Notes: generated from the sequence alone by a model not told the origin. Shown: positions 21,883 through 36,773, counted from the stretch's first letter. The stretch: DNA of 64,000 bases from Pirellulales bacterium (GCA_028289405.1 JANQPP010000206.1:1092-65091); one strand, 5' to 3'. Program-made: numbers and translations.

Positions 21883-23049
21883 TTGCAATTCGAGATCTCC
21901 ATGTCCCACATCGACACGGAACAACTGGAATCGATCCTATCCTCCCAAGGTACTGAAGCGGCTTTCTCCGAACTGGCGAAGCAATTGCGGGAACAGCGCC
22001 GGCTGCATGAACTGTTCGAGGTGCGGCTCATGCAGGCCCGCTTGCGGCTCGGGCTGCCCGTGATCCTCGGCAAGTCTCAGGAACTCGCGGCCGCGGATCA
22101 GGAGGCCATCGAGGAGGCGTACATGGAAGCCTGCCGTGAGACGGGCCGGGAGTGGCTGCGGGATGGAGCCGTGCGTGAAGCCTGGATGTATCTGCGGGCC
22201 TCGGGAGATGAATATTTGATGCGCGATCATCTCGCCTCGGCGGAGCCGGACGAATCGCGCGTCGACGCGCTGATCGACGTGGCGCTGCATGAGGGAGTTT
22301 CTCCTCGACAGGGACTGGCCTGGATCTTGGAGCATTACGGCACCTGCAATGCCATCACCAGCTTCGACAATTTCCTGCACGGCAAGGAGGGGCCGGACCG
22401 GGCCCGCTGCGCCGAGCTGCTCGTCACGCACGTGTATGAAGAGTTGTCCCGCAACGTGGCCGCCGACATCGCCCGGCGGGACGAGCGGGATCTGGCCGCC
22501 GCCACCTTGGTGGATATGATCGGGTCCCGGCCGGAACTGCTTGAGGGGCAAAACTACCATCTCGATACCACGCACCTGCACGGCGCCGTACGGATTGCCC
22601 GCTTCGCCGAAGAGCTCAAAGCCATCGAAGCCGCCTGGGAATTGACCGAATATGGCCGCCGCTTGGATCCGCAATACCAATTCGCCGGGGAAGAACCCTT
22701 TGAAGACCTCTACCCCAGCCACGGCCTGTTCTTCGCCGCGCAGCTCGGGCGGGATGTCGACGCGGCGCTCGATTACTTCCGCCAGCAGGCGCGGGACTCT
22801 CACGAGCAGCAAGGCCCCTTTTCCTCGATCGCCGTGTTCCTCACCCTGCTCACCCGCGTGGGCCGCCTGGAGGAAGCGGTGCAGGTCGCCCGCGATTGGG
22901 TCCCCGAAAGCTGGCGTTCGGCGCCCGGCGCGCCGTCGCTGTGGGAACTGTGCGAGCGGCTAGGCAATTTCACCCCGCTGATCGACGTCGCCCGCGAAAA
23001 AAGCGACCCCATCGCCTACCTGGCCGGCCGCGTCGCGCAGCAGGGGTAG
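21883..23049 (+). CDS. Hypothetical alpha-helical protein
   Basis: 388 aa, high GC, no recognised motifs; convergent with the reverse transcriptase gene. Confidence 0.5.
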   Translation: MQFEISMSHIDTEQLESILSSQGTEAAFSELAKQLREQRRLHELFEVRLMQARLRLGLPVILGKSQELAAADQEAIEEAYMEACRETGREWLRDGAVREAWMYLRASGDEYLMRDHLASAEPDESRVDALIDVALHEGVSPRQGLAWILEHYGTCNAITSFDNFLHGKEGPDRARCAELLVTHVYEELSRNVAADIARRDERDLAAATLVDMIGSRPELLEGQNYHLDTTHLHGAVRIARFAEELKAIEAAWELTEYGRRLDPQYQFAGEEPFEDLYPSHGLFFAAQLGRDVDAALDYFRQQARDSHEQQGPFSSIAVFLTLLTRVGRLEEAVQVARDWVPESWRSAPGAPSLWELCERLGNFTPLIDVAREKSDPIAYLAGRVAQQG

Positions 23050-23157
23050 GGAAGTAGGGCTGATACCCAGCCGTGGGCTGGCAAACAAATCCAATTGCTA
23101 CTGCGAAGTTGTCGATGGCAACGAGTTTTCGTTCAAAAAAGCTGACGCATACAGTGC

Positions 23158-24480
23158 TTATGCGCCCTTTTTTTGGTATTTTTCAAGTTCTGCGTGCAGA
23201 TTCGTCCAATGCCGTTTTAGCTGCTTGCGTATTGATTCACTTCTCATCATTTCCTGCGATCGCCGTCCATAACTGACGAAGTTTCGTCGACCGAGATGAC
23301 TAAATCGGCTATATAATTCGTGACGAAATATTTTTGTTGAACCACAGTTTCTGGCGGCTATCGCAGCCGAACGAACGCCGAATTTCATTCGTCGGTAGAA
23401 TCGCGCCAACGTTTGTGATCGGATTAACTTCCGTTCGCCATCAAAGGTAAAACCGAGGTATTGCAAAGGTTGATCAGACACAACAGTCCTAGATCCAGCC
23501 ACAGAAAAAACTGATCGCTCTCTCTTCTCTAAATTGGAATTTAGCAATAGTGCCTTCAGTTCCTTGTCAACTGCCTCAGACACTTGCGATTCGTACTCAC
23601 TTGGACAAATCCAGAGTATGTCATCGCTGTACCGTCGGTATACGCCACCCAACTGCGAAGCCAGATTTGCCATCGTGCGATCAAAGGGCAGCATATATGC
23701 ATTTGACAGCACTGCACTGATCGGAGACCCCTGAGGTATTCCAAAATGATTCGTATTCTGAGAAACAAGACCTTTCCCACGAACTCGAATTCGAAACTCA
23801 GCCGGTTCGCATATCCTACTCATTCTTTCAGTTGATGTGTTTGCTCGTAGTCCAAATTCAGAATAGACGGCGTCACGATCAACGAAGGCAAACTTGGTGA
23901 TTGATTTGTAAACCGCGAAATGGTCGGAGGGGAGTGAATTGACTCCCAGCAAACTACACCAGATCTGTTTCAAAAGACCGTGATCTAGCGTGTCAAAGAA
24001 TGCAGAAACATCGAATGCCAAAGCAGTACACGGTGCCCGTTGAACTGCGTCTCGAAAGGCATCGTTCGCAAAGTCGATATTGCATTTACCGATAGCTCGA
24101 TATGCAAGCACATTGCCGCTCAATTCCTCGTCGGAATAGATCCGTTCGAGTAAAGCAGCCAAGCAAAGCGAGTAACGTGCGTACACTTGAGAATCCAGGT
24201 GCGACGCGTAAGCGATAAGACGGTCTTTGGATTCAACCTTTCGCTCTTCTGGCCTATACCTTGGCGTGCTCTTAGTATATGTGATGAACGGAAAAAACGA
24301 GTGCCTCGCTACGTTGTCAGAGTTATCTAAAAAAGACTTGGCGAATTTGAAAGATACAGGTCTATCAAAATGGAGGTATCCCTTCGGTGAAAACCATCCA
24401 TCAATCTTGTGTTTTCGTTTGTCCATAATTTCGAAATAGCAATGCCGAGAGGGCCGGACCTGAGGCATCCATATGCCCAT
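23158..24480 (-). CDS. Standalone reverse transcriptase (Abi/UG-like or group-II-like; class undetermined), candidate defense-associated RT
   Basis: 440 aa (alternative ATG at 24426). RT motifs in order: motif 2 'RPEERKVESKDRLIAYASHLDSQVYA', motif A 'ALAFDVSAFFDTLDHGLL', motif B 'GIPQGSPISAVLSNAYMLPFD', motif C 'YRRYSDDILWI' (YxDD), motif 7 'LQYLGFTF', then a basic helical C-terminal extension of about 100 aa. No retron-type 'VTG' motif. Gene and flanks are visibly AT-richer than the surrounding DNA. Confidence 0.8.
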   Translation of the reverse strand: MGIWMPQVRPSRHCYFEIMDKRKHKIDGWFSPKGYLHFDRPVSFKFAKSFLDNSDNVARHSFFPFITYTKSTPRYRPEERKVESKDRLIAYASHLDSQVYARYSLCLAALLERIYSDEELSGNVLAYRAIGKCNIDFANDAFRDAVQRAPCTALAFDVSAFFDTLDHGLLKQIWCSLLGVNSLPSDHFAVYKSITKFAFVDRDAVYSEFGLRANTSTERMSRICEPAEFRIRVRGKGLVSQNTNHFGIPQGSPISAVLSNAYMLPFDRTMANLASQLGGVYRRYSDDILWICPSEYESQVSEAVDKELKALLLNSNLEKRERSVFSVAGSRTVVSDQPLQYLGFTFDGERKLIRSQTLARFYRRMKFGVRSAAIAARNCGSTKIFRHELYSRFSHLGRRNFVSYGRRSQEMMRSESIRKQLKRHWTNLHAELEKYQKKGA

Positions 24481-24883
24481 CTCGGCGCAAGCTTAACCTT
24501 CCGATGTAAACGTACATCACACGTCCTACATCGCCCTCAGTTGAAACAATACTCGCTATAATGGAGGTAGCTCATTGCATATCGTCGCCGGAGCAACATC
24601 ATGGCTAATTGCCATTACTGCCGTCTTCCGACTTGACATACTAAACAACCTGTCCCGATGGGCGAATCCCAACGGCAATAACCTAACTGTGCAATTATTG
24701 GGCCAAAGGATTGTTTTGCCAGAATGGCAGCTTCTCCGGGGTCGAGCTGGAGCAAATGCAAAAAATGACTGCCATTCTTGCGGGAATTGTCAGTCGTGAA
24801 GGAACCAACGCAATTGGTACGTTGCAAAGCAGCCACAGGTAACAATCCCGCTGTGGTGGAAAAACAGCATCCGACAGCGGGGC
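24481..24883 (-). ncRNA. Candidate structured non-coding RNA region upstream of the RT (strand and extent uncertain)
   Basis: About 400 nt with no convincing ORF, AT-richer than flanks. Imperfect 13-bp inverted repeat 24717-24729 'GCCAGAATGGCAG' / 24778-24790 'CTGCCATTCTTGC' enclosing a 48-nt loop. Shorter palindromes at 24505-24535. TATAAT-like hexamer at 24556-24561. Confidence 0.25.
24846..24880 (-). terminator. Hairpin immediately after stop of the 144-aa gene (terminator-like)
   Basis: 'CCCGCTGT' (24846-24853) pairs with 'ACAGCGGG' (24873-24880); 8-bp GC-rich stem with 19-nt loop. Begins 4 nt beyond the stop at 24884. Downstream minus-strand sequence 'GAUUGUUACCU' is only moderately U-rich. 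Confidence 0.3.
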
Positions 24884-25318
24884 TTATGCCGCGTCGGACA
24901 ATTCGCCTTCGGTGAGGCTCATCAGGTCGCGGGCGAGGAGCATCCAATCGACCGAATCGAGCGCGGCCCGCAGCATCTGGTGGGCGAACTTGGGGAGGGA
25001 ATCCGCGCCTTGTTCCCAGGAGAATTCCAGCACGTCCCGGGAACTGATCCACTGCCGCAGCGCGTCGGCCAGCAGATTGCGGGCCACGTCCCGAACTTTG
25101 TCCCGCTCGGCGCGGACCTGGCCCAGAGCGAGGATCGCGATCATGGCCTGGCGGGAGGCGGCCCGCGCCAAGGCTTGGGCATGCTGGCGGCGTTCCTTTG
25201 TCTCGGCGATGTATTTGGCCACCGCCTCCGTGGGAAGGGACATCAAGTCCCGCGCGGGGAAGATTTGCAGCGCGTCTTCGGGTGCTGAAGTCATGTCCCG
25301 CCTGCCGATACGGACCAA
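24884..25318 (-). CDS. Small alpha-helical hypothetical protein between giant ATPase and RT
   Basis: 144 aa (possible start at internal 'MTSAPEDAL'). Internal duplicated motif 'PARDLMSLPTEAV' near the N-terminus and 'LARDLMSLTEGEL' at the C-terminus. No known domain recognised. Confidence 0.45.
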   Translation of the reverse strand: MVRIGRRDMTSAPEDALQIFPARDLMSLPTEAVAKYIAETKERRQHAQALARAASRQAMIAILALGQVRAERDKVRDVARNLLADALRQWISSRDVLEFSWEQGADSLPKFAHQMLRAALDSVDWMLLARDLMSLTEGELSDAA

Positions 25319-25426
25319 AATACGACATTTCGGGCCTGTCCTCGCACGGCGCGCGAGGCGACCCTTTCTGGTATCGGCTGGTATCCAGCGCGAACTTCAA
25401 TTTCCGAAAACACCGGAAATCCGACG

Positions 25427-28400
25427 TCAGCCGCCGTCCACCTCGTTCCGGTCCCGCGAACGGGCCAGCGAGGTTTCGAGTTCTTCGATCAATTGCTCGT
25501 ATTTTTGCGTACAGTCGGCCAGGGTTTGACGCAACTCGACCAGTTCGCGGGATTGCGTGTCTCCGGAGGCGAGCAACGGCGAAAGCCAACTTTCCATGAC
25601 CTGGAACTGCTGTTGCATGACCTGCAAAAAAGAACGCGGGATACGGCTCACGACCGTGACCTGCAGGGGCGCTCCGCCGTCCAGCGTGGGACTTGGCGAA
25701 GAATCCTGGATTTCCGCCGTGGTTTTCGCCTCGGAGCCGTAGCCCGGTTGGGCGGGGACGGTAACCTTGACGGGACGCGGAGGCTGCGTGAACCACTTCT
25801 CCAGGTTTTCCGTGAATTGCCCGCCCCATTCCGTAAGCGCCGTTTGCAAATGCCCCAAATGTTCAACCAGCGGGGTCACGACTTGCGAGGAAGCCTGGTC
25901 CTCGCGAGGGGTCAAGAACGAGGCGCCTTGCCGCACGGCTTCGCCGATCTGATCGAGCCCAGCACGAAAATCTTCGAGTTGCACCACGACTTGCCCCAAC
26001 CGATCGTCGCCGCCGGCCCCCTTCAATTTTTGCTGCCGCTGGAAGGTGGCCTTGATGGCCTCCCACCGCTGCGCCTCTTCCGGCGTGAGGTTGCCGAGCA
26101 GTTCATTGAGCTTGAGCAGGTTCGCCTCGGCATCGGAGGTGAGCGTTTGGGCATCGTTCTCGTAGTTGGAAAGGATCAGGGTCTCCAACTCCGCGTCGTT
26201 CATGATCGACACCACCCGTTCGGCGATGCGGTTCATGTTGCGGTAAGAACCTTGCAGTTTGAAAGGTGGTTCCGTGCGGTAAGCATCGGCCTGCGCGGCG
26301 GAGCGGATGTATTCCTGATTCACGGTGAGCACGACGTCCCGCACGCGGAGCAGTTTCCGCATCACGGAGACGAGCTCCTGCATTTCGTCGGCGGAGTAAT
26401 TGCCTTCCCATTCGAACCCGTCGGTTCCTCCCTGCTCCGCGACTTTTAGCAGCGTGTGAACATCCTGGGGATGGCGATGGGCAACTCGATTGAGCACGGT
26501 ATTCGAGGTGGCGCAGTTTTCGATGTAGCTCATCTCGAACACATCCGCCGAATCGCCGATGATATCTCCCAAGTTGTAGATATCGGCGCGGTTGGAAAGC
26601 ATGTCGGGGATCTGGAATTTCTCGCCGCTCTCCGTGTAGGGGTTGCCGGCCATGACCACCGCAACCTTCCGTCCCCGCAGGTCGTAAGTGCGGGGCTGGC
26701 CGTTCCATACGCCCTCGATCTTCCGCTGGGCATCGCAGAGGGAGATGAATTTCTGCAGGAATTCGGGATGGCAATGCTGGATGTCGTCCACGTAGATCAT
26801 GACGTTGTCCCCCATTTCCAGGGAGAGATTCAGCTTGCGAATCTCTTCCCGCGCGCCGGCGTTGGGGGCTTCCGCCGGATCGAGCGACATCACGCGATGG
26901 CCGATGGCGGGGCCGTTGATCTTCATGAAGGTCAGGCCCAGGCGGTTGGCGACGTATTCCATCAAGGTGGTTTTGCCGTAGCCCGGCGGGGAGACGAGCA
27001 GCAGCAATCCCATGCGGTCGGTCCGCTTTTGGTCGCCCGCCGCGCCGCACTGTTTGGCCAGGTTGTCGCCGATGAGCGGCAAATAGACTGTGTCGATGAG
27101 GCGGTTCCGCACGAACGAAGTCAGCACGCGGGGCTTGAATTCGTCGAGCCGCATCCCCTGGCGGTGCTCGGCGACCAGGTTCTTTTTCAGGGCGTGGAAT
27201 TCTTCGTAGCGGGGGACTTCCACTTCCGCGAAGTTTCGCAGCTTGGTGAAAAAAGTGTGGAAGTTCAGCCGATAGTTGCCGCCTTCGAGGACCGGATGCG
27301 TGCCCACCATGTCTTTGAGAACTCGCAGCGGTTCTCCTTCCAGCACGCGCTTGGGCGGCGTGGCAGTGAGCAGACGCAGGGCAACCTCCTCCACGTAGCC
27401 TTCACGTTCGGGATCGGCATGTTCCCGCACGAAAGCCCGTGCCGCGTCGCAAGCCAATTGGAACGCGCTCGCGGGATCTTTTTCCAAGGCGGTGAGTGCA
27501 TTCCGCCAGGTTTCTTCTTGGACTTGGTGATGCAGATGCTCTTGGAAGTTTCGCGCCAATTCCTCCGCCGCATGGCTGACGGCAAAATCGGGCGAACTGC
27601 TGATTTCGTCGTAGAGATATCGCGCGGCTGGTTCGAGGGAATCCGGGGAAAACAAGGGCCGCCGTTCCACGAACTCGGCGAGCCGGTCCTGAAGTTCATG
27701 GACGTAATTTGCTTTCGGCGTGGCGCGAGGAAACCACTGTTCCACGCGTCCTACCCCCTGCAAGCGAGCTGTGAGCAATTCCTTTTCCTGGGGTGGAAGG
27801 AAAAACCGCCAATACAACTGGGCCAGCGACCGGGCCGGAGCCGGGTAACGCAGCAGCCCCAAGTGCTCGTCGAGGTCCCACAAGGCACTCAAGATTCGGG
27901 CTGCGTCTTGGTCGGTGACGCCCTTGACATACCCTTCGGTGTAGCGGGGGGCCATGAATTCGCGAACCCAATCCAGCCGGGCTGGTTCGCTGGTCCGCAA
28001 TTCCTGCCGGCGTTTGAGAGGAATGTCCTCTGGCGACCGTTGCCACAAGAGATACGCCAAGTATTCACCGCGGTAGACGTGTTCGTTCTCGGAGATCGTT
28101 TCCCGGTTCCACAGGTCTTGGGCTTCGGTCAGCCCGGGATCGTCCAATGGCTCGAAAAAGTTCGTGCCGGTGAGGTGCAGGAGCATGTCGCCTTCACGGA
28201 CGACGGTCGTGAGATCTAGCGGCTGCGTGTTGACATGGAAGCGGTGCCGCCCGAATTGCAGCACGTTTTCGCCCTCAACAAACAATTCCTGTTTGTCGCG
28301 CAATTGCCGCAGGGCATCTTCCTGCACGGTCTTGAGCCGGCTTTGAATCTCGTCCAGCTTGACGGTATCGCCGAGGGATTCGAGTTGCCCGCAGATGTCG

Positions 28401-30820
28401 CGGACCTTATCCACCATTAGATCGGCGGCGAAATAGGCGTTGATTTCCTGGACCGTTTCCAGCGAACCGACCCGAGTTTGAATGCCCTTCAAGATGCGGT
28501 CCGCGGCACTGGCCAGCGCGGCAGCGCGTTTGTTGCGGGCTTCGACCAGCTCAACTTTGCGGGCTTCGAAGATGGAGTAAATCTCGTCCCGCTTCTCGGA
28601 AAGCTGGACGACGAACTCATCGAACTCCGCGAAACGGCCCTCCAATTCCTCGATCTGCACCATGAGCTTGGTGAGAAATTCGTCGCACTTTTCCGGAGTG
28701 CGGCACAAATCGAGATAATTGGTGACGCCCTGGTCCAAGAGCCGGAGTTGAGAACTGAACTCCGCCGCCGCCTCCACGGACATCAATTCTTTGGCCCGTT
28801 TTTTTAGCGCTGCCCGGGCCTGATTGATGCGGGTGAAGATCTGCGAAATGGCATCGACGATGGCGGTGCGCTGCGTGGTGTCGTCGATTTTGAGGTTGCT
28901 CACCACGTCGATGAGCATCTCGAGTTCCGCCGCCGTTTGCTTGATTTCCTCTTCGAGTTCCTTGGCCTGCGCGACCTTCGCCACCTCGGCGATTCGCGCA
29001 TGCTGGCCGGTTACTTTTTGTTGGTATGGCTCCAACGCCGCCGGCTTGAGCAGGAATTCCACGCAGCGGCGGGCCAGACGTTCGGACTGCTCGGAGACCT
29101 CCTGTTCCAGCTTTTCGACCAATGGTAGGTCCACGTACCGCAATTCGCGGAGCCCGATGATCCCGCCGCGCAGCAGCCGTAGCTCGCCCAGGGAGGCCAC
29201 ATAATCTTGAATCGTTTCGAACCGCCGGCGATTGACCGTGGCGAGCGTCTCTCGCGTCTTCTCCTGAATGGAACGGGTTTGCTCGGCGGTTTGCCGTTGG
29301 GCTCGGCGGACCTTTTCGTATTCCTCGACCGCCGACGCGGCGGTTTCCCGGATCTGCTTCAAGATTTCGCCAGGCCGAAAGGCCTCTTCGGCATCGATCC
29401 AGAAGTAGGAATCGACGACTTCCGTGGCGATTTTCTCAATGTCCAGGTAGAGGCTCGCGTACGCCTCTTCCCGGCCAATCAGGGCCAAGATCTCATGGCA
29501 TTCGGCCATGCCCCGCACGATGTCGCGGTTTCCCACCTTGTAGAGATACGATTCGGCGTGCGCGGCGGGGACATGCGTATCGCTGGTGAAGGGCGTTTGC
29601 CAGACTTGCAAGGGATGATGCCGTTGGGGTTCTTCATGTGTGCGGAAGCAGAGCAGTTCCCCTTCTTGGAAAATCGTGAAACCGTGGCATATCAGCGGGG
29701 TTTCCACGGCCTGTTCGATGCAATTGTATTGCAACAGGACATATACGCCCTTCAAGCGGTGGTGGAACACAAACAGCGTGTCCTCGCCGTTGGACGCGGT
29801 AACCCGCCGCGCGAAGAGCATGTCCGCCGCGGAGTGGTCGAATGTTTTGAACTCTCCGCTTTGCAAATAGTAGCCGCCGGGAAAGATCAGCCCCTGGTCA
29901 TCCGGCAAGAGCACGCAAGAGGTGGCCAATTCGTCCAGACGGACCACGGATTGCAGTTTTTCGTTGTAAACGAAGTAGCGGTAATCGGGCTCTTGATAAG
30001 GCCGAATTTTCAGCAGAATCAGATGGCCCAGGATGGCATAAAATATCTCCGCGTCATCGAGCGTCTGGTCGGCATTGTCGACCGGTTCGTCGTGGATCCC
30101 CTCGCCGGAATCCGTGTTGTTCTCCACTTTGATGGTCAGGTCACCGCCGATGGTTTCCACGAACAGGCGGTCGGCGATGGAGACATGCGGATGCTTGCCG
30201 AAGAAATGCTCGTCCCGCGTGGTCCGCGTCCATTCAAATTCATGCTGTGGCGGATAACGGACCTCGTGATCGCTGCGGTTGTCGATGTACTGAAGGCCGG
30301 TGTCCGTGAACAGCCACTTGAACGCTTTGATGTCACTAATCTCGCGTCCGGTACGAAACACCATGTAGAGGTGCGGCCCGGAGAGAAAGAACTGCGAGAA
30401 CGTGGCATCCTTGTAATAGCGGTAAATCTCCTCGAAGTCACGCTGGAACTGGGCATCCTCAAGCAGCGTGAGCGGCTGTTCATGGAACGTGCCGTCACGG
30501 AATTCGTGTACGGCGAACACATCCTCTGGCCGCCGCTCCGTTTTCAGGCCGAATTGGACGTTGAATCCGAACAGAAAGAAACGTCCCACGGCCACGATGT
30601 CCCGGGGCACGCAATTGTGTTCCGTGGTGACCCGTTCCGTGGCAAGCAGCTTGGTCTCGATCGAGCCGAAGACCTTTTTTCGCTCCTCGTTGAGCTGCCC
30701 CAGCCGCTGGCGCAGTTCGCCCGCCTGGGTCGAAAGCCGCTGGCTAATGATTTCATAGGTGCCGCTTTCCAGCTCGATGTCCGAACCCTGCGACGTGGCG
30801 GAGGCGGTATCGGCGGCCAT
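25427..30820 (-). CDS. Giant (1797 aa) protein with a single AAA_5/MoxR-type AAA+ ATPase domain and long coiled-coil regions; function unknown
   Basis: Walker A 'LLLLVSPPGYGKTTLMEYV', Walker B 'NVMIYVDDIQ', sensor-1/Arg region 'VAVVMAGNPYTESGEKFQIPDMLSNRADI' (MoxR/dynein-like) at about aa 1180-1400. Extensive heptad-like helical segments at about aa 480-900. Long antisense ORFs on the + strand are considered GC artefacts. Confidence 0.8.
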   Translation of the reverse strand: MAADTASATSQGSDIELESGTYEIISQRLSTQAGELRQRLGQLNEERKKVFGSIETKLLATERVTTEHNCVPRDIVAVGRFFLFGFNVQFGLKTERRPEDVFAVHEFRDGTFHEQPLTLLEDAQFQRDFEEIYRYYKDATFSQFFLSGPHLYMVFRTGREISDIKAFKWLFTDTGLQYIDNRSDHEVRYPPQHEFEWTRTTRDEHFFGKHPHVSIADRLFVETIGGDLTIKVENNTDSGEGIHDEPVDNADQTLDDAEIFYAILGHLILLKIRPYQEPDYRYFVYNEKLQSVVRLDELATSCVLLPDDQGLIFPGGYYLQSGEFKTFDHSAADMLFARRVTASNGEDTLFVFHHRLKGVYVLLQYNCIEQAVETPLICHGFTIFQEGELLCFRTHEEPQRHHPLQVWQTPFTSDTHVPAAHAESYLYKVGNRDIVRGMAECHEILALIGREEAYASLYLDIEKIATEVVDSYFWIDAEEAFRPGEILKQIRETAASAVEEYEKVRRAQRQTAEQTRSIQEKTRETLATVNRRRFETIQDYVASLGELRLLRGGIIGLRELRYVDLPLVEKLEQEVSEQSERLARRCVEFLLKPAALEPYQQKVTGQHARIAEVAKVAQAKELEEEIKQTAAELEMLIDVVSNLKIDDTTQRTAIVDAISQIFTRINQARAALKKRAKELMSVEAAAEFSSQLRLLDQGVTNYLDLCRTPEKCDEFLTKLMVQIEELEGRFAEFDEFVVQLSEKRDEIYSIFEARKVELVEARNKRAAALASAADRILKGIQTRVGSLETVQEINAYFAADLMVDKVRDICGQLESLGDTVKLDEIQSRLKTVQEDALRQLRDKQELFVEGENVLQFGRHRFHVNTQPLDLTTVVREGDMLLHLTGTNFFEPLDDPGLTEAQDLWNRETISENEHVYRGEYLAYLLWQRSPEDIPLKRRQELRTSEPARLDWVREFMAPRYTEGYVKGVTDQDAARILSALWDLDEHLGLLRYPAPARSLAQLYWRFFLPPQEKELLTARLQGVGRVEQWFPRATPKANYVHELQDRLAEFVERRPLFSPDSLEPAARYLYDEISSSPDFAVSHAAEELARNFQEHLHHQVQEETWRNALTALEKDPASAFQLACDAARAFVREHADPEREGYVEEVALRLLTATPPKRVLEGEPLRVLKDMVGTHPVLEGGNYRLNFHTFFTKLRNFAEVEVPRYEEFHALKKNLVAEHRQGMRLDEFKPRVLTSFVRNRLIDTVYLPLIGDNLAKQCGAAGDQKRTDRMGLLLLVSPPGYGKTTLMEYVANRLGLTFMKINGPAIGHRVMSLDPAEAPNAGAREEIRKLNLSLEMGDNVMIYVDDIQHCHPEFLQKFISLCDAQRKIEGVWNGQPRTYDLRGRKVAVVMAGNPYTESGEKFQIPDMLSNRADIYNLGDIIGDSADVFEMSYIENCATSNTVLNRVAHRHPQDVHTLLKVAEQGGTDGFEWEGNYSADEMQELVSVMRKLLRVRDVVLTVNQEYIRSAAQADAYRTEPPFKLQGSYRNMNRIAERVVSIMNDAELETLILSNYENDAQTLTSDAEANLLKLNELLGNLTPEEAQRWEAIKATFQRQQKLKGAGGDDRLGQVVVQLEDFRAGLDQIGEAVRQGASFLTPREDQASSQVVTPLVEHLGHLQTALTEWGGQFTENLEKWFTQPPRPVKVTVPAQPGYGSEAKTTAEIQDSSPSPTLDGGAPLQVTVVSRIPRSFLQVMQQQFQVMESWLSPLLASGDTQSRELVELRQTLADCTQKYEQLIEELETSLARSRDRNEVDGG

Positions 30821-30986
30821 CGGAAAAACCTCGTGCTCGAAGGACTAAGCGGAAACCGGGAAGCGGATCATGTTTCGACGACGATGTGACATGGCCGGAG
30901 TCGGGAGCCATCTAAAGTCCAGGAGAGGGAGTGGACCTCGAAGTCCGACCTCCCTCTCGATGCCTGTGTGCCGGCCATGAGGGCGC

Positions 30987-33014
30987 TCAACTGGTGGACC
31001 GCTTGCGTGCCGAGTTGCCTCCTCGGCCTGGTTTCCGCAGCAAACTGTCCGCCCGCTGTTCGGAGATGCCGGAATCGCTGGCCAGGCCCAACAGTCGTTG
31101 CAGGTCGAAACGGCTTTCCTGCGTCGAGGCCAGGGAAAGCATCTTGCCGATCAAGGCCGCGATGGAGAGGTCCTTCACGTCGTCGGTGCTGAGGTGGAAT
31201 TCTTCCACGAGCTGCTTCAGCTTGTCCCGGAAGTAGTTGGGATCTCCGTTGAAGAAGGTGTTTTTCACATCGGACAAGACCTGGCTGTTGTTCACGAAGC
31301 GGTCCACGGACTTGCCCGCCTTGATCGAATCGATGATGCGGTCGAAAAATTCGGTCTCGCCGCCGACGATATCGATGCGGGCCGACTTGAGGGCCGAACC
31401 GACGATTTCCGCCTGCTCCTCGGCGATGCGGTATTGGGCATCGATGGCGGCCAGTTCGATATCCTTCTCCTTGTTCAAGCGGAGCTTGAATTCCTCGTGG
31501 TCTCGGCCCACGCCATCGAAGAGTTTCATGGCGTTGGCCTTGTCCTCGATGCCGGTGGCTTCGGAGTTGTACTTCAGCTTCATGACTTCGGCTTCCGCCG
31601 TGCCATGTTTTTCCAGCGCGGTCGCCTTGGCCTCGGTGACTTGGGCCTCGGCCAGGCCCACGGCAGCCTCGTCGGCCGTTTTGGCTTCGGCCAACATCTT
31701 GCGGGCTTGGGTATCCTTTTCCGCCGCGACCCGGCTGGCTTCCGCTTCGACCACTTTTTGTTCCGCGTAAAGTTCCGCGGCCTGTTTGGAGGCTTCGGCC
31801 TGTTTGACGTCCTTGACGAGAGATTCCTGGGCCTGCATCTCCGCCTTGGTCACGGTGACCTGTTTGAGACGGTCGGCGCCGGCGAATTCTTGTGTGTCCT
31901 TGATGCGTTCTTGCTCTTCCACGACGGAGCGTTCCACCACGACGCGCTCGCGGATGACTTCCTGGATGTTCCGCTGCTCGACTTCGACCGCCTTATCCTT
32001 ATCGATCACGGCCAGCTCGACTACGCGTTCCCGCTCGGTGGCTTCCAATTGCCGGTCTTTCTCCACTCGCTCGGTTTCCACCGCGTCGGTCCGTTCCTTG
32101 TTTTTGCGGGCAACGATAATCTGCCGCTCCTTGTTTTCTTCACCGACGAAGATCTGCTCGTCGGAGGCGATGCGGGCCTGCTCCGCGCGGAGCCGCTGCT
32201 CTTCTTGAATCTTTTTGGTTTCCGCATCTTCCCTCGCGGCGATCACGGCGACCTCGCGTTTCTGCTTTTCTTGCGCCTCCACCCGCTGCCGTTCCAATTC
32301 CAAGATCGCTTCGGCGGCCTCGACATCCTGCTTCTTGATCGTCTTTTCCTTTTCCCGCGTGATGCCGTTGGCGAGCACGAATTCGCGGGCGGTCAGGTCA
32401 GTGATCTTTTTGATGCCTTCGGCATCGAGGATGTTTTGTGGGTTGAGGTTTTCGACGGTGGTCTGTTCCAAGTAATCGATCGCGCAGTCATCCAGGACAT
32501 AGCCATTGAGGTCCGTGCCGATGACTTTCAGGATTTCCGCCTTGAAGCTGTCCCGCTCGTTGTACAGCTCCACGAAGTCGAAGTGCCGCCCGACGGTCTT
32601 CAAACCTTCGGAAAATTTGGCGTCGAAAAGCTCGATCAGCGCCTGCTGCTCGGAAGCCCGCTGGCAACCCAAGGATTGGGCAACCTGCAGGATATCGCCA
32701 CGCGTATTATTCACGCGGACGAAGAAAGCGACCTCGATATCCGCGCGGATGTTGTCTTTACAGATCAAACCAGCAACTCCACGCCGGGCGATTTCGATCC
32801 TTTTGACGGAGATATCCATCCGTTCCGCGCGGTGAGCGATGGGGATCACCCAGATCCCGGAACCGGTGGCCACGCTGAGCCCGCCCACGCCGGAACGCAC
32901 GATTGCCTCTTCCGGGCCGACCTTGCGATAGAAGCGGGAAAAACCGACTCCCAGGCCGACCAAGAATAAGGCCAGCACGAAGATAATCGATAGAACAGTC
33001 AATATTTCATTCAT
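30987..33014 (-). CDS. Flotillin / SPFH (band-7) domain protein, YqiK-like, with long E/A/K/R-rich coiled coil
   Basis: 675 aa; N-terminal TM 'ILTVLSIIFVLALFLVGLGV'; SPFH region 'IPIAHRAERMDISVKRIEIARRGVAGLICKDNIRADIEVAFFVRV...'; about 350 aa of charged coiled coil. Confidence 0.85.
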   Translation of the reverse strand: MNEILTVLSIIFVLALFLVGLGVGFSRFYRKVGPEEAIVRSGVGGLSVATGSGIWVIPIAHRAERMDISVKRIEIARRGVAGLICKDNIRADIEVAFFVRVNNTRGDILQVAQSLGCQRASEQQALIELFDAKFSEGLKTVGRHFDFVELYNERDSFKAEILKVIGTDLNGYVLDDCAIDYLEQTTVENLNPQNILDAEGIKKITDLTAREFVLANGITREKEKTIKKQDVEAAEAILELERQRVEAQEKQKREVAVIAAREDAETKKIQEEQRLRAEQARIASDEQIFVGEENKERQIIVARKNKERTDAVETERVEKDRQLEATERERVVELAVIDKDKAVEVEQRNIQEVIRERVVVERSVVEEQERIKDTQEFAGADRLKQVTVTKAEMQAQESLVKDVKQAEASKQAAELYAEQKVVEAEASRVAAEKDTQARKMLAEAKTADEAAVGLAEAQVTEAKATALEKHGTAEAEVMKLKYNSEATGIEDKANAMKLFDGVGRDHEEFKLRLNKEKDIELAAIDAQYRIAEEQAEIVGSALKSARIDIVGGETEFFDRIIDSIKAGKSVDRFVNNSQVLSDVKNTFFNGDPNYFRDKLKQLVEEFHLSTDDVKDLSIAALIGKMLSLASTQESRFDLQRLLGLASDSGISEQRADSLLRKPGRGGNSARKRSTS

Positions 33015-33631
33015 GATGGTTCCTCGGTTTCGGCGGGTTGGATCCAGAAGATATGGGCTTGGGGATCATGGTCCACGAGGGTAGCCAAGTCCCCTTTGTG
33101 CATGGTGCCAGTGGTGGTGCGGACTTGCAGCCGCAACGGCGCTCCGTCGGAAGCGACTTCCACTTGTCCGGACGATTCATCCGCTTGGAGCGAAACGACG
33201 GTGCAAGACCTACCCAGCAGATCCCGCACGCGATTGGGTTCGATGGGATCAAATTTCCCCGACAGCGGATTCGTGACGAGCTTCGCCACAATCACCGCCA
33301 GCCCGCCGTTGCGGAGCATGATGGCGGCCAATGAAGCGTAATCCGTGGCGGGGATTTCGCTCCGCCACAGCATGGAAATACCCCAGTAGGCTAGGGAAAA
33401 CACACTCAGCCAGAGCATGAATGGCACGCGGCCAATATTCAAAAACTTCAGCACGACGAAGCCCGCGCCCATCACGCCATGTGCCTCGGCGTCGAAGTCG
33501 ACTTCGACATCCAGAAAATCGAGATCGAAGGCGCCCAGGATGATCAATAGCCAATAGGCGCAGATCAACATCAGAAGGATTGTCGCAGGGAACGCAGGCC
33601 CCGAGAGCGCGGTCTGAATAAACTCTGTCAT
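33011..33631 (-). CDS. NfeD/YqiJ-like membrane protein (flotillin-associated, OB-fold C-terminus)
   Basis: Start refined to 'MTEFIQTALSGPAFPATILLMLICAYWLLIILG'. TM helices plus C-terminal beta-rich 'VVSLQADESSGQVEVASDGAPLRLQVRT'. 4-nt overlap with flotillin start. Confidence 0.6.
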   Translation of the reverse strand: MTEFIQTALSGPAFPATILLMLICAYWLLIILGAFDLDFLDVEVDFDAEAHGVMGAGFVVLKFLNIGRVPFMLWLSVFSLAYWGISMLWRSEIPATDYASLAAIMLRNGGLAVIVAKLVTNPLSGKFDPIEPNRVRDLLGRSCTVVSLQADESSGQVEVASDGAPLRLQVRTTTGTMHKGDLATLVDHDPQAHIFWIQPAETEEPS

Positions 33632-33969
33632 GACATCATCCCTGGATTCGCCAACGATGCCCCAACGGCGCGCGGGTCCCGTCCATGGCGGCAACCGGAA
33701 CAACCCGTATGATCGGGACGGTCCGGCGGCACGCGTGGGGCTTCCACAATATATGTCACAAAACCCTCGGAGGAATCATCTCCCGATGATTCGCCTGAAT
33801 CACGCCAGCAGCGTGAGGCGCGGACCGGTACCTTCGGCCCATGCTATCCCCTAAGGGCGAAACAGCAGGGCATTTGGGGCGCGGCTTCCACCAAATTTCC
33901 CGATTTTTTCGATGGACCAGGATGCGGCTGCGACAGGAAGGCCCTCGTTGCCACTCGTCGGAGGGGAAG

Positions 33970-36153
33970 TTATTCAGGCGTCGTGATTTTTCGTTGAAAG
34001 AATTCCCGGGCTGCCGGGTGCATTCCGGGCCCAACCCAGTGCGAGGCCTCGACGAAGGAGACGAATTCCGGAGCAAAGGGCTCGTGCGGAGTCTCGAAGA
34101 AGCCTTCCAATAGGAGCCGCACCATCTTCGGCGAGGCGTTGGGACGAGTCGCCAAAAAAGCCGCCGTGGAAACGGTGGAAATCCCCGTGTCGGGGATATC
34201 GTCGCATTCTGGATAGACGTCGGCGGGAATCGTAAAGACTTTGAACGCCAAATGTTGCCGGTGGAGGATTTCCACTTCTTCGCGGCTAAATGGAACGAGG
34301 CGATACTCTCCGCTTGCGAGCAGTCCATGCAGGGCCGAATTATGTAGCCCCGTGGTCACAATCGCTCCATCAAGATCTGGATAAACCTTCAACTTGAGGA
34401 AACTAACGCCGGGGGTCCGCAAGTCCGGCAAACGTTTGCGAAAGTGTTGCACGATCAGTTCCGCGCTGGTCCGCATGCCGGAATCCGGCTCCCCAATGGC
34501 CAACGACACCTTGCCGAGGTCGGCGAAGGAGCTTCCTGGCGTATTTCGACGAACGACGACATGTACTGCCTCTTGATAGAGAGGCGATATCCACATTTGC
34601 CCACTGGGAAACATCGTCGTTCCCTGCAGGATCGCGACATCGACTTCGCCTTGACCGAGGAGACGCAAATTGGCGGCAGAGCCGGGCGAAGCCACCACGG
34701 ACATGCCATGCCCCATCGTCTCTTCAAAATGCGTCCGCATGCGGTGGCCCACGTCATGGTACATGCCATCCTCGATCCCCGTGGCCAGACGGATCGGATC
34801 GGGAACATGATCCGCGCGTGGCCACCACTGCCACGCCACCAGGGCGACGGCCACGATCACCACCGCGACGAGCGTGATCCGCTGTGCACGATGATGATGC
34901 GGCGTGGCCACCGCGACGGGCCGCCCCAACAGAGCCGCCACCAATGGCACGTCCCGCAGCCAATTCCAAGTCCGCTCCGCGAACCCGGCTGGACGAGCTT
35001 CGATCGGCCGGTCTTCTAGGAATCGTGTCAGATCATCGGCAACGGCGGCAGCGGATGCATACCGTTCTCGTGGTTCGCTCCGCATGCATTTGAGGCAAAT
35101 GGTTTCCAAATCTCCCTGTACTTCCGGCCGCCATTGGCTGGGAGGGACCGGCTCCTGATGCACGACCTGGAGCAGCGTATCCACGGCGGTTTCCGAAAGA
35201 AACGGAGGCCGGCCCGTGAGGGCGTAGTACATCACGGCTCCCAAGGCATAGACATCCGTGGCGGAGCCGACCTCCTCGGTGCATCCCGCCGCCTGCTCGG
35301 GCGACATGTAACTGGGCGTGCCCACGATTTCGCCGGTGCGCGTTAGTCCCGGTTCGTCTTCGACGCGCTTGGCCAGGCCGAAATCCGTGATATGCGGCAC
35401 ATCCTCCGACGTCAGCAAAACGTTGGAGGGTTTCAAGTCCCGGTGCAGGATGCCGTGTTCATGAGCGAATTGCACCGCCTCGGCCACGGATTTCATGAGC
35501 TGGGCCACTGTCGTCAGCGGCATCTGGCCGTCCGCCGCCCGTTCACGGAGCGTGATGCCCTCGATATAGGGCATCGAATAGTAATGTTGGCCCTCGAGTT
35601 GGTCCGCTTCGTGGATGCCCACGATATGCGGATGCCGCAACCTTCCCGCGACTTGGACTTCGTGATGGAATCTCCGCACGTCCGCTTCGGAGGCGAGCCG
35701 GCCAGACAAGATCATTTTGACCGCCACGATGCGGTCCATGGGCCGTTGCCGCGCCTTGTAGACAACCCCCATGCCGCCACGTCCTACTTCCTCCAGCAGT
35801 TCATATTGGCCGAATTGTCGCTGGGCGAATTCGGGCTGGAATGTGTCCGCCCGGTTGTCTCTTGTCGACGGTTCTCCTCCGAGGCAAATGGTCTCCTCCA
35901 GCCCCGAAACCTGCTCCTCGGAGACGACACGTGCCGTGTCGCTGGGCGGTTCGTCGGCAATCGGCCCGGCCATGCCGTCCACCATTTCGGCGGTACGCAG
36001 CAGCTCTCGCAATGTATCCGCCAGGTCCTCATGCTCGCGGAGCCACTGCTCCCGGTCGAGGCGCTCCCCTTCATCCCGACGACGCAAGTACTCCGCCCAG
36101 GCCGCGTCTAGACGTTGTTCCTCGTCATCGGGCGAGTGTTCAGTTTCATTCAT
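33970..36153 (-). CDS. Ser/Thr protein kinase with C-terminal periplasmic solute-binding-protein-like (TAXI/phosphonate SBP-like) domain
   Basis: Start refined to 'MNETEHSPDDEEQRL' (directly after sigma-factor stop). Kinase motifs 'VGRGGMGVVYKARQ', 'AVKMI', 'HRDLKPSNVLL', 'DFGLAKR', 'GTPSYMSPE'. TM segment, then SBP-like region of about 300 aa. Confidence 0.75.
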   Translation of the reverse strand: MNETEHSPDDEEQRLDAAWAEYLRRRDEGERLDREQWLREHEDLADTLRELLRTAEMVDGMAGPIADEPPSDTARVVSEEQVSGLEETICLGGEPSTRDNRADTFQPEFAQRQFGQYELLEEVGRGGMGVVYKARQRPMDRIVAVKMILSGRLASEADVRRFHHEVQVAGRLRHPHIVGIHEADQLEGQHYYSMPYIEGITLRERAADGQMPLTTVAQLMKSVAEAVQFAHEHGILHRDLKPSNVLLTSEDVPHITDFGLAKRVEDEPGLTRTGEIVGTPSYMSPEQAAGCTEEVGSATDVYALGAVMYYALTGRPPFLSETAVDTLLQVVHQEPVPPSQWRPEVQGDLETICLKCMRSEPRERYASAAAVADDLTRFLEDRPIEARPAGFAERTWNWLRDVPLVAALLGRPVAVATPHHHRAQRITLVAVVIVAVALVAWQWWPRADHVPDPIRLATGIEDGMYHDVGHRMRTHFEETMGHGMSVVASPGSAANLRLLGQGEVDVAILQGTTMFPSGQMWISPLYQEAVHVVVRRNTPGSSFADLGKVSLAIGEPDSGMRTSAELIVQHFRKRLPDLRTPGVSFLKLKVYPDLDGAIVTTGLHNSALHGLLASGEYRLVPFSREEVEILHRQHLAFKVFTIPADVYPECDDIPDTGISTVSTAAFLATRPNASPKMVRLLLEGFFETPHEPFAPEFVSFVEASHWVGPGMHPAAREFFQRKITTPE

Positions 36154-36773
36154 GGCACGACCGTCCGTGAGGAACAGGCGAACTTGTCCCGCAGGCCACG
36201 CAACCCTCGTTTGAGCAGTCCCGCCACGGCGACCTCCGAGCGTTCGAAGTGTGCCGCCAATTGTGCCAGCGTCCAGCCCTCCAAATGCCGCAAGCGGACC
36301 GCTTCGGACTGATCGGCTGGCAATTGGTCGATCGCCTGGGCCAGCCGGATGGCCGCTTCGCCCCGCATGAGCCGTCGGCTGGGAGAGGACGTTTCCGCTG
36401 GCGGTTCCCACGAGGGAGCCTCTTCCGATCGATCGACCGCCTCCCGCCGTACTTCCTGGTCCACGCTGCGTTTCGCGGCGCGAATGTGCGCGCGAAACGC
36501 TTCCAGAATATTGTGGTCCAAGATGGTGTGCAGCCACGTGACGAATTCGCCGGGCTGTTGGCCCGAGAATTTCGCCAGATCCCGGTGGGCTTCCAAATAC
36601 GTCTGCTGGACGATGTCGGAAGCTTCCACGCGAGCCTGCAAACGGCTTCCCAACTTTCGCCGCGCGTGGATGCGAAAATAGGCGCGGAACGATTCCAACA
36701 GCCGGCCAAGGGCTTCCTCGTCACCCTCGCGGGCCCGCTCCAAGAGCAGTTGATGATCGGAAAAATCGCTCAC
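36150..36773 (-). CDS. ECF-type RNA polymerase sigma-70 factor
   Basis: Region 2 'DIVQQTYLEAHRDLAKF', region 4 'VRLRHLEGWTLAQLAAHFERSEVAVAGLLKRGLRGLR'. Track ORF extends to 36926; likely GTG start near 36773 (approximate). Confidence 0.7.
   Translation of the reverse strand: MSDFSDHQLLLERAREGDEEALGRLLESFRAYFRIHARRKLGSRLQARVEASDIVQQTYLEAHRDLAKFSGQQPGEFVTWLHTILDHNILEAFRAHIRAAKRSVDQEVRREAVDRSEEAPSWEPPAETSSPSRRLMRGEAAIRLAQAIDQLPADQSEAVRLRHLEGWTLAQLAAHFERSEVAVAGLLKRGLRGLRDKFACSSRTVVP

Follow-up and report, generated by a model that had tools for sequence, protein, structure and literature searches.

Does a reverse transcriptase (RT) that is encoded directly behind a set of membrane-related genes work together with them, or do two unrelated modules happen to share one strand? 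This question is raised by a locus of a Pirellulales bacterium, contained in a stretch of 64,000 nucleotides (nt) of DNA (hereafter, the window), of which we treat positions 23,158 to 33,969. Five genes follow one another on the minus strand, encoding a YqiJ-like protein, a flotillin-like protein, a giant DUF3686/AAA+ ATPase, a small orphan protein, and an RT, with a structured noncoding stretch directly before the latter. A sequence-only reading had proposed that these six elements could act as one membrane-associated RT system or, alternatively, that an RT module had inserted next to a pre-existing host operon. We favor two independent neighboring modules, namely the host operon and a functional-looking DRT2 anti-phage system carrying the 99-nt template described below, and put the probability of this reading at roughly 0.85.

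Linkage between the two modules

One line of evidence is synteny, the test of linkage that had been named beforehand. We compared 166 other related RT loci from genomes and metagenomes, with at least 3 kb of upstream sequence in 95 of them and at least 5 kb in 66. Homologs of the YqiJ-like, flotillin-like, DUF3686, or small open reading frame (ORF) products were found at none of these loci. Conversely, an RT is absent from all six other DUF3686 loci, which were taken from Symmachiella dynata, Gimesia panareensis, and a planctomycete metagenome-assembled genome (L001-L003), as well as from plasmids of Hymenobacter, Pseudomonas, and Streptomyces (L172-L174). With unrelated genes downstream of the YqiJ-like, flotillin, and ATPase trio elsewhere and RTs occurring without the trio, the linkage appears accidental, and the proposal that the whole unit acts together fails.

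Composition draws the same border. As had been noticed before, only the RT end looks foreign: a GC content of 0.40-0.50 is confined to ~23100-24850, with flanks at 0.57-0.70, and the GC content at third codon positions (GC3) is 0.44 in the RT gene and 0.70-0.81 in the neighboring genes. The codon log-likelihood of the RT gene is negative, whereas all its neighbors, including the small ORF, are host-like. The 1.75-kb low-GC patch is thus probably a DRT2 cassette gained by horizontal transfer, as judged from its composition and from distant synteny. The break in composition, together with the occurrence of the trio without an RT elsewhere, supports the insertion of an RT module beside an already existing operon.

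The ORF map reproduces the arrangement that had been described. The YqiJ-like and flotillin genes overlap by 4 nt (ATGA start/stop); 166 nt separate the flotillin gene from the DUF3686 gene, and another 108 nt (counted to a TTG at 25318) or 132 nt (to an ATG at 25294) lie before the small ORF. From the end of this ORF to the longest RT ORF there are 403 nt with no credible ORF between. Co-directionality of five genes is by itself not unusual. A 404-residue ORF (24615-25829), which in another frame overlaps the ATPase gene at its 3' end, the small ORF, and the noncoding stretch in its upstream part, was discarded as a high-GC artifact.

The edges of the cassette carry few traces of its arrival. 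A search for flanking repeats of an insertion scar gave nothing but short matches such as chance would produce. One of them, an imperfect inverted repeat of 15 nt (23078-23092 and 24708-24722, 13/15 positions), brackets the RT gene and the noncoding RNA (ncRNA); we do not count it as evidence of a mobile element because, by our own estimate, ~3 such pairs are expected by chance in 2.5 kb. No mobile-element genes were found; housekeeping genes make up the nearest downstream ORFs that were scanned, and ~27 kb separate the cassette from the only tRNA gene. The cassette therefore stands outside any visible defense island.

The predicted DRT2 cassette and its template

The RT gene (23158-24426, minus strand) probably encodes 422 residues. 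Its label as an RT stands, with RVT_1 as the sole Pfam domain, and can be narrowed further. The protein scores 505.7 bits against the NCBIfam equivalog NF041746 Drt2 (cutoff 390), spanning profile positions 1-416 of 416, and matches the PADLOC Drt2 model with an E value of 1.5e-151. The catalytic YSDD lies within YRRYSDDILWI; its Y, D, and D do not vary across an alignment of 21 Drt2 proteins. These matches identify the enzyme as a bona fide Drt2 (UG2 family). Its closest relatives are 64-68% identical and sit on short metagenomic contigs with a GC content of 0.48-0.49; the next ones, at ~50% identity, come from metagenomic contigs and cyanobacteria. The closer relatives adjoin defense-island genes (a methyltransferase-Mrr pair, a DEAD helicase, and CBASS-type ThiF/JAB/SAVED genes). 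Most relatives obtained by scanning metagenomes with the RT were 28-36% identical and of little help for the ncRNA subclade.

In the DRT2 system of Klebsiella, an ncRNA upstream of the RT gene contains a ~120-nt template bracketed by ACA motifs, which is copied repeatedly by template jumping. On infection, the resulting concatemer is made double-stranded, a promoter arises at the junctions, and neo, an ORF free of stop codons that lies antisense to the ncRNA, comes to be expressed (Tang et al. 2024, PMC11100668; Wilkinson et al. 2024, PMC12039810). Annotating Neo in divergent DRT2 clades was reported to be difficult (Tang et al. 2024, PMC11100668). For the present locus, we replaced the search for ACA-bracketed templates by a motif-agnostic scan, in which a duplicated flank, the unit length, a junction promoter, and an open frame are scored together. 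Applied to most other DRT2 loci, including that of Klebsiella (L026), the same scan recovers the published ACA flanks, units of 111-132 nt, and the TTGACA/TATAAT elements, which validates it.

The candidate template of the window occupies 24550-24648 on the minus strand and measures 99 nt, i.e., 33 codons. It reaches a scan score of 15.0, the maximum possible; the 624 control tiles from the window peak at 12.5. It opens with a first UUGUUU (24643-24648), identical over 6 nt to a copy exactly 99 nt downstream. This second UUGUUU (24544-24549) lies directly 3' of the template and would be the counterpart of ACA-2, that is, the predicted re-annealing site. Read on the plus strand, the same 99 nt form the predicted neo unit, with a -10 element TATAAT at 24557-24562, a GGAGG at 24563-24567, a TTG at 24575-24577, and a -35 element TTGACA at 24633-24638. 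Joining such units head to tail creates a perfect TTGACA-17-TATAAT promoter across the junction, places GGAGG 7 nt before TTG, and leaves a single stop-free frame with the 33-codon repeat NNTRYNGGSSLHIVAGATSWLIAITAVFRLDIL. No plus-strand promoter was detected in the un-concatenated genomic arrangement, where the -10 element precedes the -35 element by ~70 nt. A promoter that appears only after joining matches the need of a gene existing solely after reverse transcription.

The same features recur in a subclade of eight loci. All eight units are divisible by three and have an open frame (99, 102, 102, 99, 93, 78, 108, and 81 nt). The two flank copies co-vary among the relatives, reading TGTTT/TGTTT in L006, TGTCTTT/TGTCTTT in L067, and ATGTTCAG/ATGTTCAG in L170. 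Most relatives, L006 and L067 among them, have an ATG at the position where the window and its closest relative (L005) have a TTG. Particularly short neo units were seen in L170 (4796-4873, 78 nt), L088 (157-237, 81 nt), and L168 (2610-2702, 93 nt); these comprise 26-31 codons, each with a hydrophobic core. Taken together, the alignments suggest a DRT2 subclade that jumps on a motif with a GU core (UUGUUU here) rather than on ACA and that has repeats of 78-108 nt. As a novelty, this is better supported than a coupling to the operon.

The template is embedded in an RNA that is conserved along with the RT. That the ~400 nt before the RT are structured, as had been claimed, is borne out by a single-sequence fold z-score of -2.54 and by comparison. 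The sequence upstream of the RT is conserved with its counterparts in L005, L006, and L067 (nhmmer, MAFFT), and in an alignment of eight sequences 91% of the cells are paired in the RNAalifold structure. Compensatory changes occur in 19 pairs, versus 8.5 +/- 1.8 in column shuffles (none of 500 shuffles reaches 19), and a slid control, with partners moved by 1-3 columns, yields 2-6 such pairs. The helices comprise a 5' handle hairpin, internal stems, and, at the 3' end, a long hairpin (24486-24444). The 5' handle (24655-24675, minus strand) lies just upstream of the template; this helix 1 has eight pairs, seven of them with compensatory changes, and 93% of its cells are paired. The 3' scaffold (24428-24500, minus strand) is a tower-like hairpin with arms at 24486-24476 and 24454-24444, a conserved loop GGAUGCCUCAGGUCC, and a subsequent UUGCUA; its helices 4-6 also show compensatory changes.

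A covariance model of this 3' element only (R1) has a single match in the window, at 24428-24500 with 83 bits, and also matches 12 DRT2 loci outside the eight-sequence training set, each time just upstream of the RT. A similar stem-and-loop hairpin, likewise noncoding, can be seen by eye in the Klebsiella locus and in other canonical loci. An additional pairing of 24555-24559 with 24436-24440 (minus strand) would enclose the entire 3' scaffold; it is supported by eight sequences, and two of its five pairs are compensatory. About 250 nt of the upstream noncoding stretch, from roughly 24690 to roughly 24433, thus probably represent the DRT2 ncRNA. A candidate promoter for both the ncRNA and the RT, CTGGCA-17-AATAAT (24694-24722, minus strand), is the only promoter-like site in 22900-25500; an alternative -35 element, TTGGCC at 24701-24706, is conserved as TTGGCA in relatives. 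The remaining 150-200 nt farther upstream hold two hairpins, one right behind the stop codon of the orphan ORF (described below) and one at the upstream edge of the acquired patch, before this putative promoter. The latter has 13-nt arms and a 38-nt loop (24718-24781, minus strand; inverted repeat I7). Its arms AAUGGCAG and CUGCCAUU are kept in L005 (~1105-1170), whose similarity to the window starts there. Its role could be that of an insulator or a terminator, or it could extend the ncRNA on the 5' side.

The 3' hairpin also bears on the start of the RT. The longest ORF (23158-24480) and the public gene call (start 24468, inside the hairpin loop) both reach into the ncRNA because the loop holds an in-frame AUG. 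We dropped the public start in favor of the ATG at 24426, as the hairpin is noncoding in canonical loci. The choice rests on a family-consensus Trp, which lies ~11 residues into the protein from this start (MDKRKHKIDGW), and on relatives whose ORF cannot be extended and starts past the hairpin. The loop GGAUGCCNCAGNUCC with its in-frame AUG (24426-24486, minus strand, in the window) was also seen in P0001, P0002, and P0003. Here, the called Drt2 ORFs are 14-38 codons too long, with over-extended calls of 436, 460, and 456 residues versus a typical ~420. At the other end of the gene, a bidirectional hairpin resembling an intrinsic terminator (23144-23166, both strands) overlaps the RT stop codon and has T-runs both ways. 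The cassette (~23140-24800) would form a complete DRT2 set with one promoter, an ncRNA, a Drt2 RT, and a terminator.

By analogy with Klebsiella, such a set would work as follows. The RT would bind the ncRNA via the 5' handle and the 3' scaffold and copy the 99-nt template, after which the 3' end of the complementary DNA (cDNA), AAACAA, would melt off the first UUGUUU and re-anneal at the second, giving rolling-circle reverse transcription. At the predicted cDNA junction, CTAAACAA would be joined to TACTCGCTATAAT (also written as GACATACTAAACAA joined to TACTCGCTATAATGGAGG). Upon phage infection, the concatemer would become double-stranded and each junction would create the consensus promoter TTGACA-17-TATAAT, with the repeat supplying GGAGG, TTG, and a 33-codon frame that never ends. 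Translation of this frame would yield Neo, a largely hydrophobic polypeptide made of repeats, and Neo would arrest the cell (abortive infection). Template jumping at UUGUUU, second-strand synthesis, transcription and translation of neo, and growth arrest are all presumed from the analogy, and the chief doubts concern the TTG start and the non-ACA motif.

Alternative readings

How far could the neighbors nevertheless be involved? If the entire six-element cluster were one defense system, the flotillin and YqiJ-like proteins might form a scaffold, the AAA+ protein a sensor or motor, and the RT with its ncRNA the effector arm. All elements are indeed co-directional with short gaps, and the predicted Neo repeat, being hydrophobic, could have the membrane as its target. 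The border between the modules is not clearly closed either: a hairpin CCCGCUGU...ACAGCGGG (24847-24881, minus strand), which starts 3 nt past the stop codon of the orphan ORF and is paired in the minimum-free-energy fold, is a possible terminator of host transcription, yet it has no U-tract and was not picked by the terminator scan. Against such a system stand the counts given above (0/166 RT loci with the upstream genes, 6/6 other DUF3686 loci without an RT) and the sharp break that both GC content and codon usage show at ~24850. The upstream genes gave no significant match to PADLOC defense models either (a single mad8 match, E 0.0038). Moreover, DRT2 works in E. coli as RT and ncRNA alone, with no NTPase or membrane partner needed (PMC11100668, PMC12039810). 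We consider this proposal very improbable. Only slightly better are the chances of a local and newly evolved wiring of the DRT2 cassette to an envelope-stress operon, which would not be a conserved system. Without a U-tract in the hairpin behind the orphan ORF, transcription of the flotillin/AAA+ operon could conceivably read through and raise the levels of ncRNA and RT under membrane stress; the hydrophobic 33-residue Neo repeat might then act at a membrane organized by the flotillin module. On balance, we regard such wiring as quite unlikely and retain the reading of two independent modules.

Two further alternatives concern the cassette itself. The RT might belong to another class of retroelement (a group II intron, a retron, or another UG/Abi RT), with the upstream RNA as an intron or msr/msd. 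The presence of RVT_1 as the only Pfam domain would allow this, and the group II, retron, and Drt3a models are indeed matched weakly, but the scores stay far below the cutoffs (54.8 vs 300 for group II TIGR04416, at most 46.8 vs 235 for retrons, and 57.6 vs 200 for Drt3a). An Rfam search of 22800-26000 with E values up to 1 matched no group II intron, retron, or other family, and the upstream RNA has the template, promoter, and tower features specific to DRT2, which leaves this class assignment with a negligible chance. It is also unlikely, though less so than any of the foregoing, that the cassette is a DRT2 relic or silent in its host, i.e., intact in sequence and non-functional here. The stop-free frame offers only a TTG and no ATG, a sigma-70-type junction promoter could be poorly used in a planctomycete, the composition has not been ameliorated towards the host, and the ncRNA promoter is weak by E. 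coli consensus. On the other hand, the RT ORF is intact with its catalytic motif, and all scaffold helices are intact as well. The perfect junction promoter, the intact Shine-Dalgarno (SD) sequence, and the stop-free frame are all features that decay would quickly erode, and L005 has a TTG at the same position.

The preferred reading of a host operon beside a functional-looking DRT2 system has its own weak points. The insertion is deduced from composition and distant synteny only, and the missing U-tract makes read-through from the host operon possible. Both the ends of the ncRNA and its promoter are deduced, with the best promoter-like site agreeing at 9/12 consensus positions, and the Rfam search provided no family with which the ncRNA could be compared. 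The canonical ACA-1 and ACA-2 are absent, and the search for an ACA-bracketed template gave no valid unit. As the predicted neo frame contains no ATG, its start would be TTG or a rarer codon. The cDNA, its concatemers, Neo, and phage resistance are predictions carried over from the Klebsiella system. Finally, the function proposed below for the host trio is drawn from gene context alone.

The host operon and comparison with known systems

The host operon starts with the YqiJ-like gene (33011-33631, minus strand), encoding 206 residues from its likely start at 33631. The longest ORF reaches 33703; the shorter form is favored by the public gene call (L004) and by the alignment of orthologs. The earlier label of this protein as NfeD is weak: its match to Pfam YqiJ_N (PF21001) lies slightly above the cutoff (24.8 vs 23 bits), and a direct hhalign comparison with E. 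coli YqiJ gives a weak 19-column motif only. The protein is, however, 41-44% identical to the products of genes of 203-206 residues in the same place in L001-L003, and its gene stands to the flotillin gene as yqiJ to yqiK. It is therefore probably a small membrane protein of the YqiJ/YuaF type (NfeD2-like, DUF1449).

The second gene (30987-33014, minus strand) encodes a flotillin-like protein (YqiK-like, SPFH2) of 675 residues. Although it has no Pfam match and gave nothing significant in a sequence search of the PDB, its flotillin label withstands a more sensitive comparison: a profile of four planctomycete sequences aligns with E. coli YqiK over 381 columns (hhalign probability 99.9, E 4.4e-32). 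There is also a weak match to FloT (NF058507, E 2.7e-4), and the orthologs in L001-L003 are 71-74% identical.

The giant gene (25427-30820, minus strand; 1797 residues), the last of the conserved host trio, was rightly called an AAA ATPase. Its product matches PF12458 (DUF3686, E 8.3e-193), PF25472 (DUF7902, E 1.6e-28), and the AAA families PF00004/PF07728, in the order DUF3686, coiled coil/DUF7902, and AAA domain. It has more than 5000 homologs, the best of which (56-59% identical) come from Planctomycetes. The product name "DNA repair ATPase" given to DUF3686 proteins appears to be a bare annotation.

In all six other loci examined (L001-L003, L172-L174), the DUF3686 gene is preceded by a flotillin-like gene. 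The full trio, with products of 203-206, ~700, and ~1800 residues (the ATPase), is found in L001-L003 with unrelated genes downstream. It also occurs in the same order, again lacking an RT, on plasmids of Hymenobacter (Bacteroidota), Pseudomonas fluorescens (pQBR103; Pseudomonadota), and Streptomyces (Actinomycetota). The trio is vertically conserved in Planctomycetes and present across phyla. Genes for PspA/IM30 and CesT/Tir lie directly beside it in Hymenobacter, and a PspA gene lies ~4 kb upstream in pQBR103. More broadly, PspA/IM30, CesT/Tir, rhomboid, and glutathionylspermidine-synthase genes were seen beside or near the trio in L172 (2598-11911) and L173 (1-12190). These plasmid neighbors fit an envelope-stress role. 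The trio would most likely act in the ATP-dependent organization or repair of the inner membrane. In the window, neither PspA nor CesT/Tir adjoins the trio: its downstream neighbor is the orphan ORF, and its upstream neighbor, a gene next to the YqiJ-like gene and likewise on the minus strand (33970-36537), encodes a Ser/Thr protein kinase of 855 residues, fused to an NMT1_3 (periplasmic-binding-like) domain.

The orphan ORF between the modules (24884-25294, minus strand) encodes 136 residues from the likelier ATG at 25294, with the TTG at 25318 as an alternative. Searches for homologs returned only the protein itself, both among 5.8e9 clusters (word-indexed search) and in an exhaustive phmmer run over 1.84e9 representatives, and no match was found in Pfam, NCBIfam, PADLOC, or PHROG. 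Kinship with a gene of 163 residues downstream of the DUF3686 gene in Gimesia was considered and rejected for lack of similarity. The GC contents of its three codon positions (0.70/0.45/0.81) and its codon log-likelihood (+0.59 in frame versus -0.63 and -0.47 out of frame) are those of a host-like coding sequence. It is probably a genuine gene specific to this lineage, and neither module has it as a conserved partner.

What follows from this analysis? In our view, a membrane-associated RT system does not exist here as a unit and is not worth pursuing as one. Both modules are of known kinds, and the variant jump motif and short units are a useful refinement rather than a surprise. With this locus, DRT2 gene synthesis gains a clean example from a planctomycete, beyond the well-studied gammaproteobacterial clade. 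The locus also suggests that template jumping is not bound to ACA but that any short duplicated motif (UUGUUU here) can serve. This provides an annotation rule for neo in divergent DRT2 clades, namely a duplicated flank, a length divisible by three, a junction promoter, and an open frame. A word of caution is also warranted, as gene callers extend Drt2 ORFs into the 3' hairpin of the ncRNA. The host operon, in turn, adds a further instance of the cross-phylum trio of YqiJ, flotillin, and DUF3686 AAA+ ATPase.

Known counterparts exist for both modules. For SPFH2 flotillins, YqiJ and YuaF have been described as divergent NfeD (NfeD2) partners (Hinderhofer et al. 2009, PMC2636767), and the two-gene core of the trio corresponds to yqiJK of E. 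coli and yuaFG of B. subtilis (PMC2636767). Ravi et al. (2024, PMC11237479) described an operon linked to the phage-shock-protein (PSP) response to envelope stress, which combines a band-7/flotillin protein, a YqiJ/YuaF protein with three transmembrane segments, and a novel AAA+ ATPase that contains coiled-coil and beta-propeller regions. In some cases CesT/Tir and PspA are added to it, and an abbreviated three-gene form is widespread (PMC11237479). The Pirellulales trio agrees with it in all three protein types, in their order, and in a YqiJ-like/flotillin pair whose translation is coupled. Unlike the full-length operon, it has no adjacent PspA or CesT/Tir and thus represents the abbreviated form.

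The second module shares with the DRT2 system of Klebsiella a single Drt2-family RT with no separate effector gene. In both, a co-oriented ncRNA lies just upstream, with a 5' handle in the same position, a template, and a 3' scaffold with a long hairpin. A pair of short motifs brackets the template, whose unit is divisible by three and has a stop-free antisense frame. TATAAT and TTGACA lie near opposite ends, so that a promoter with a 17-nt spacer forms only across the junction, and an SD sequence and a start codon follow the -10 element. The differences lie in the details. The flank is UUGUUU (core GU, co-varying in relatives) instead of ACA, the unit measures 99 nt (33 codons) instead of 111-132 nt, the start is TTG instead of ATG, and the ncRNA spans ~250 nt versus 281 nt in Klebsiella. 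The Neo repeat is unrelated, save for the parts dictated by the promoter and the SD sequence. Compared with enterobacterial Drt2, the RT is only ~44-45% identical, the host is a planctomycete, and the system is known from its DNA sequence alone. More distantly, the cassette resembles DRT9, DRT10/UG17, and retrons in combining an RT with an adjacent structured ncRNA and in using DNA synthesis as the immune output. The products of these systems are homopolymers, short telomere-like repeats, or msDNA, and separate effectors are needed by several of them. The RT described here, on the other hand, scores far below their models, and its template carries a promoter and an ORF.

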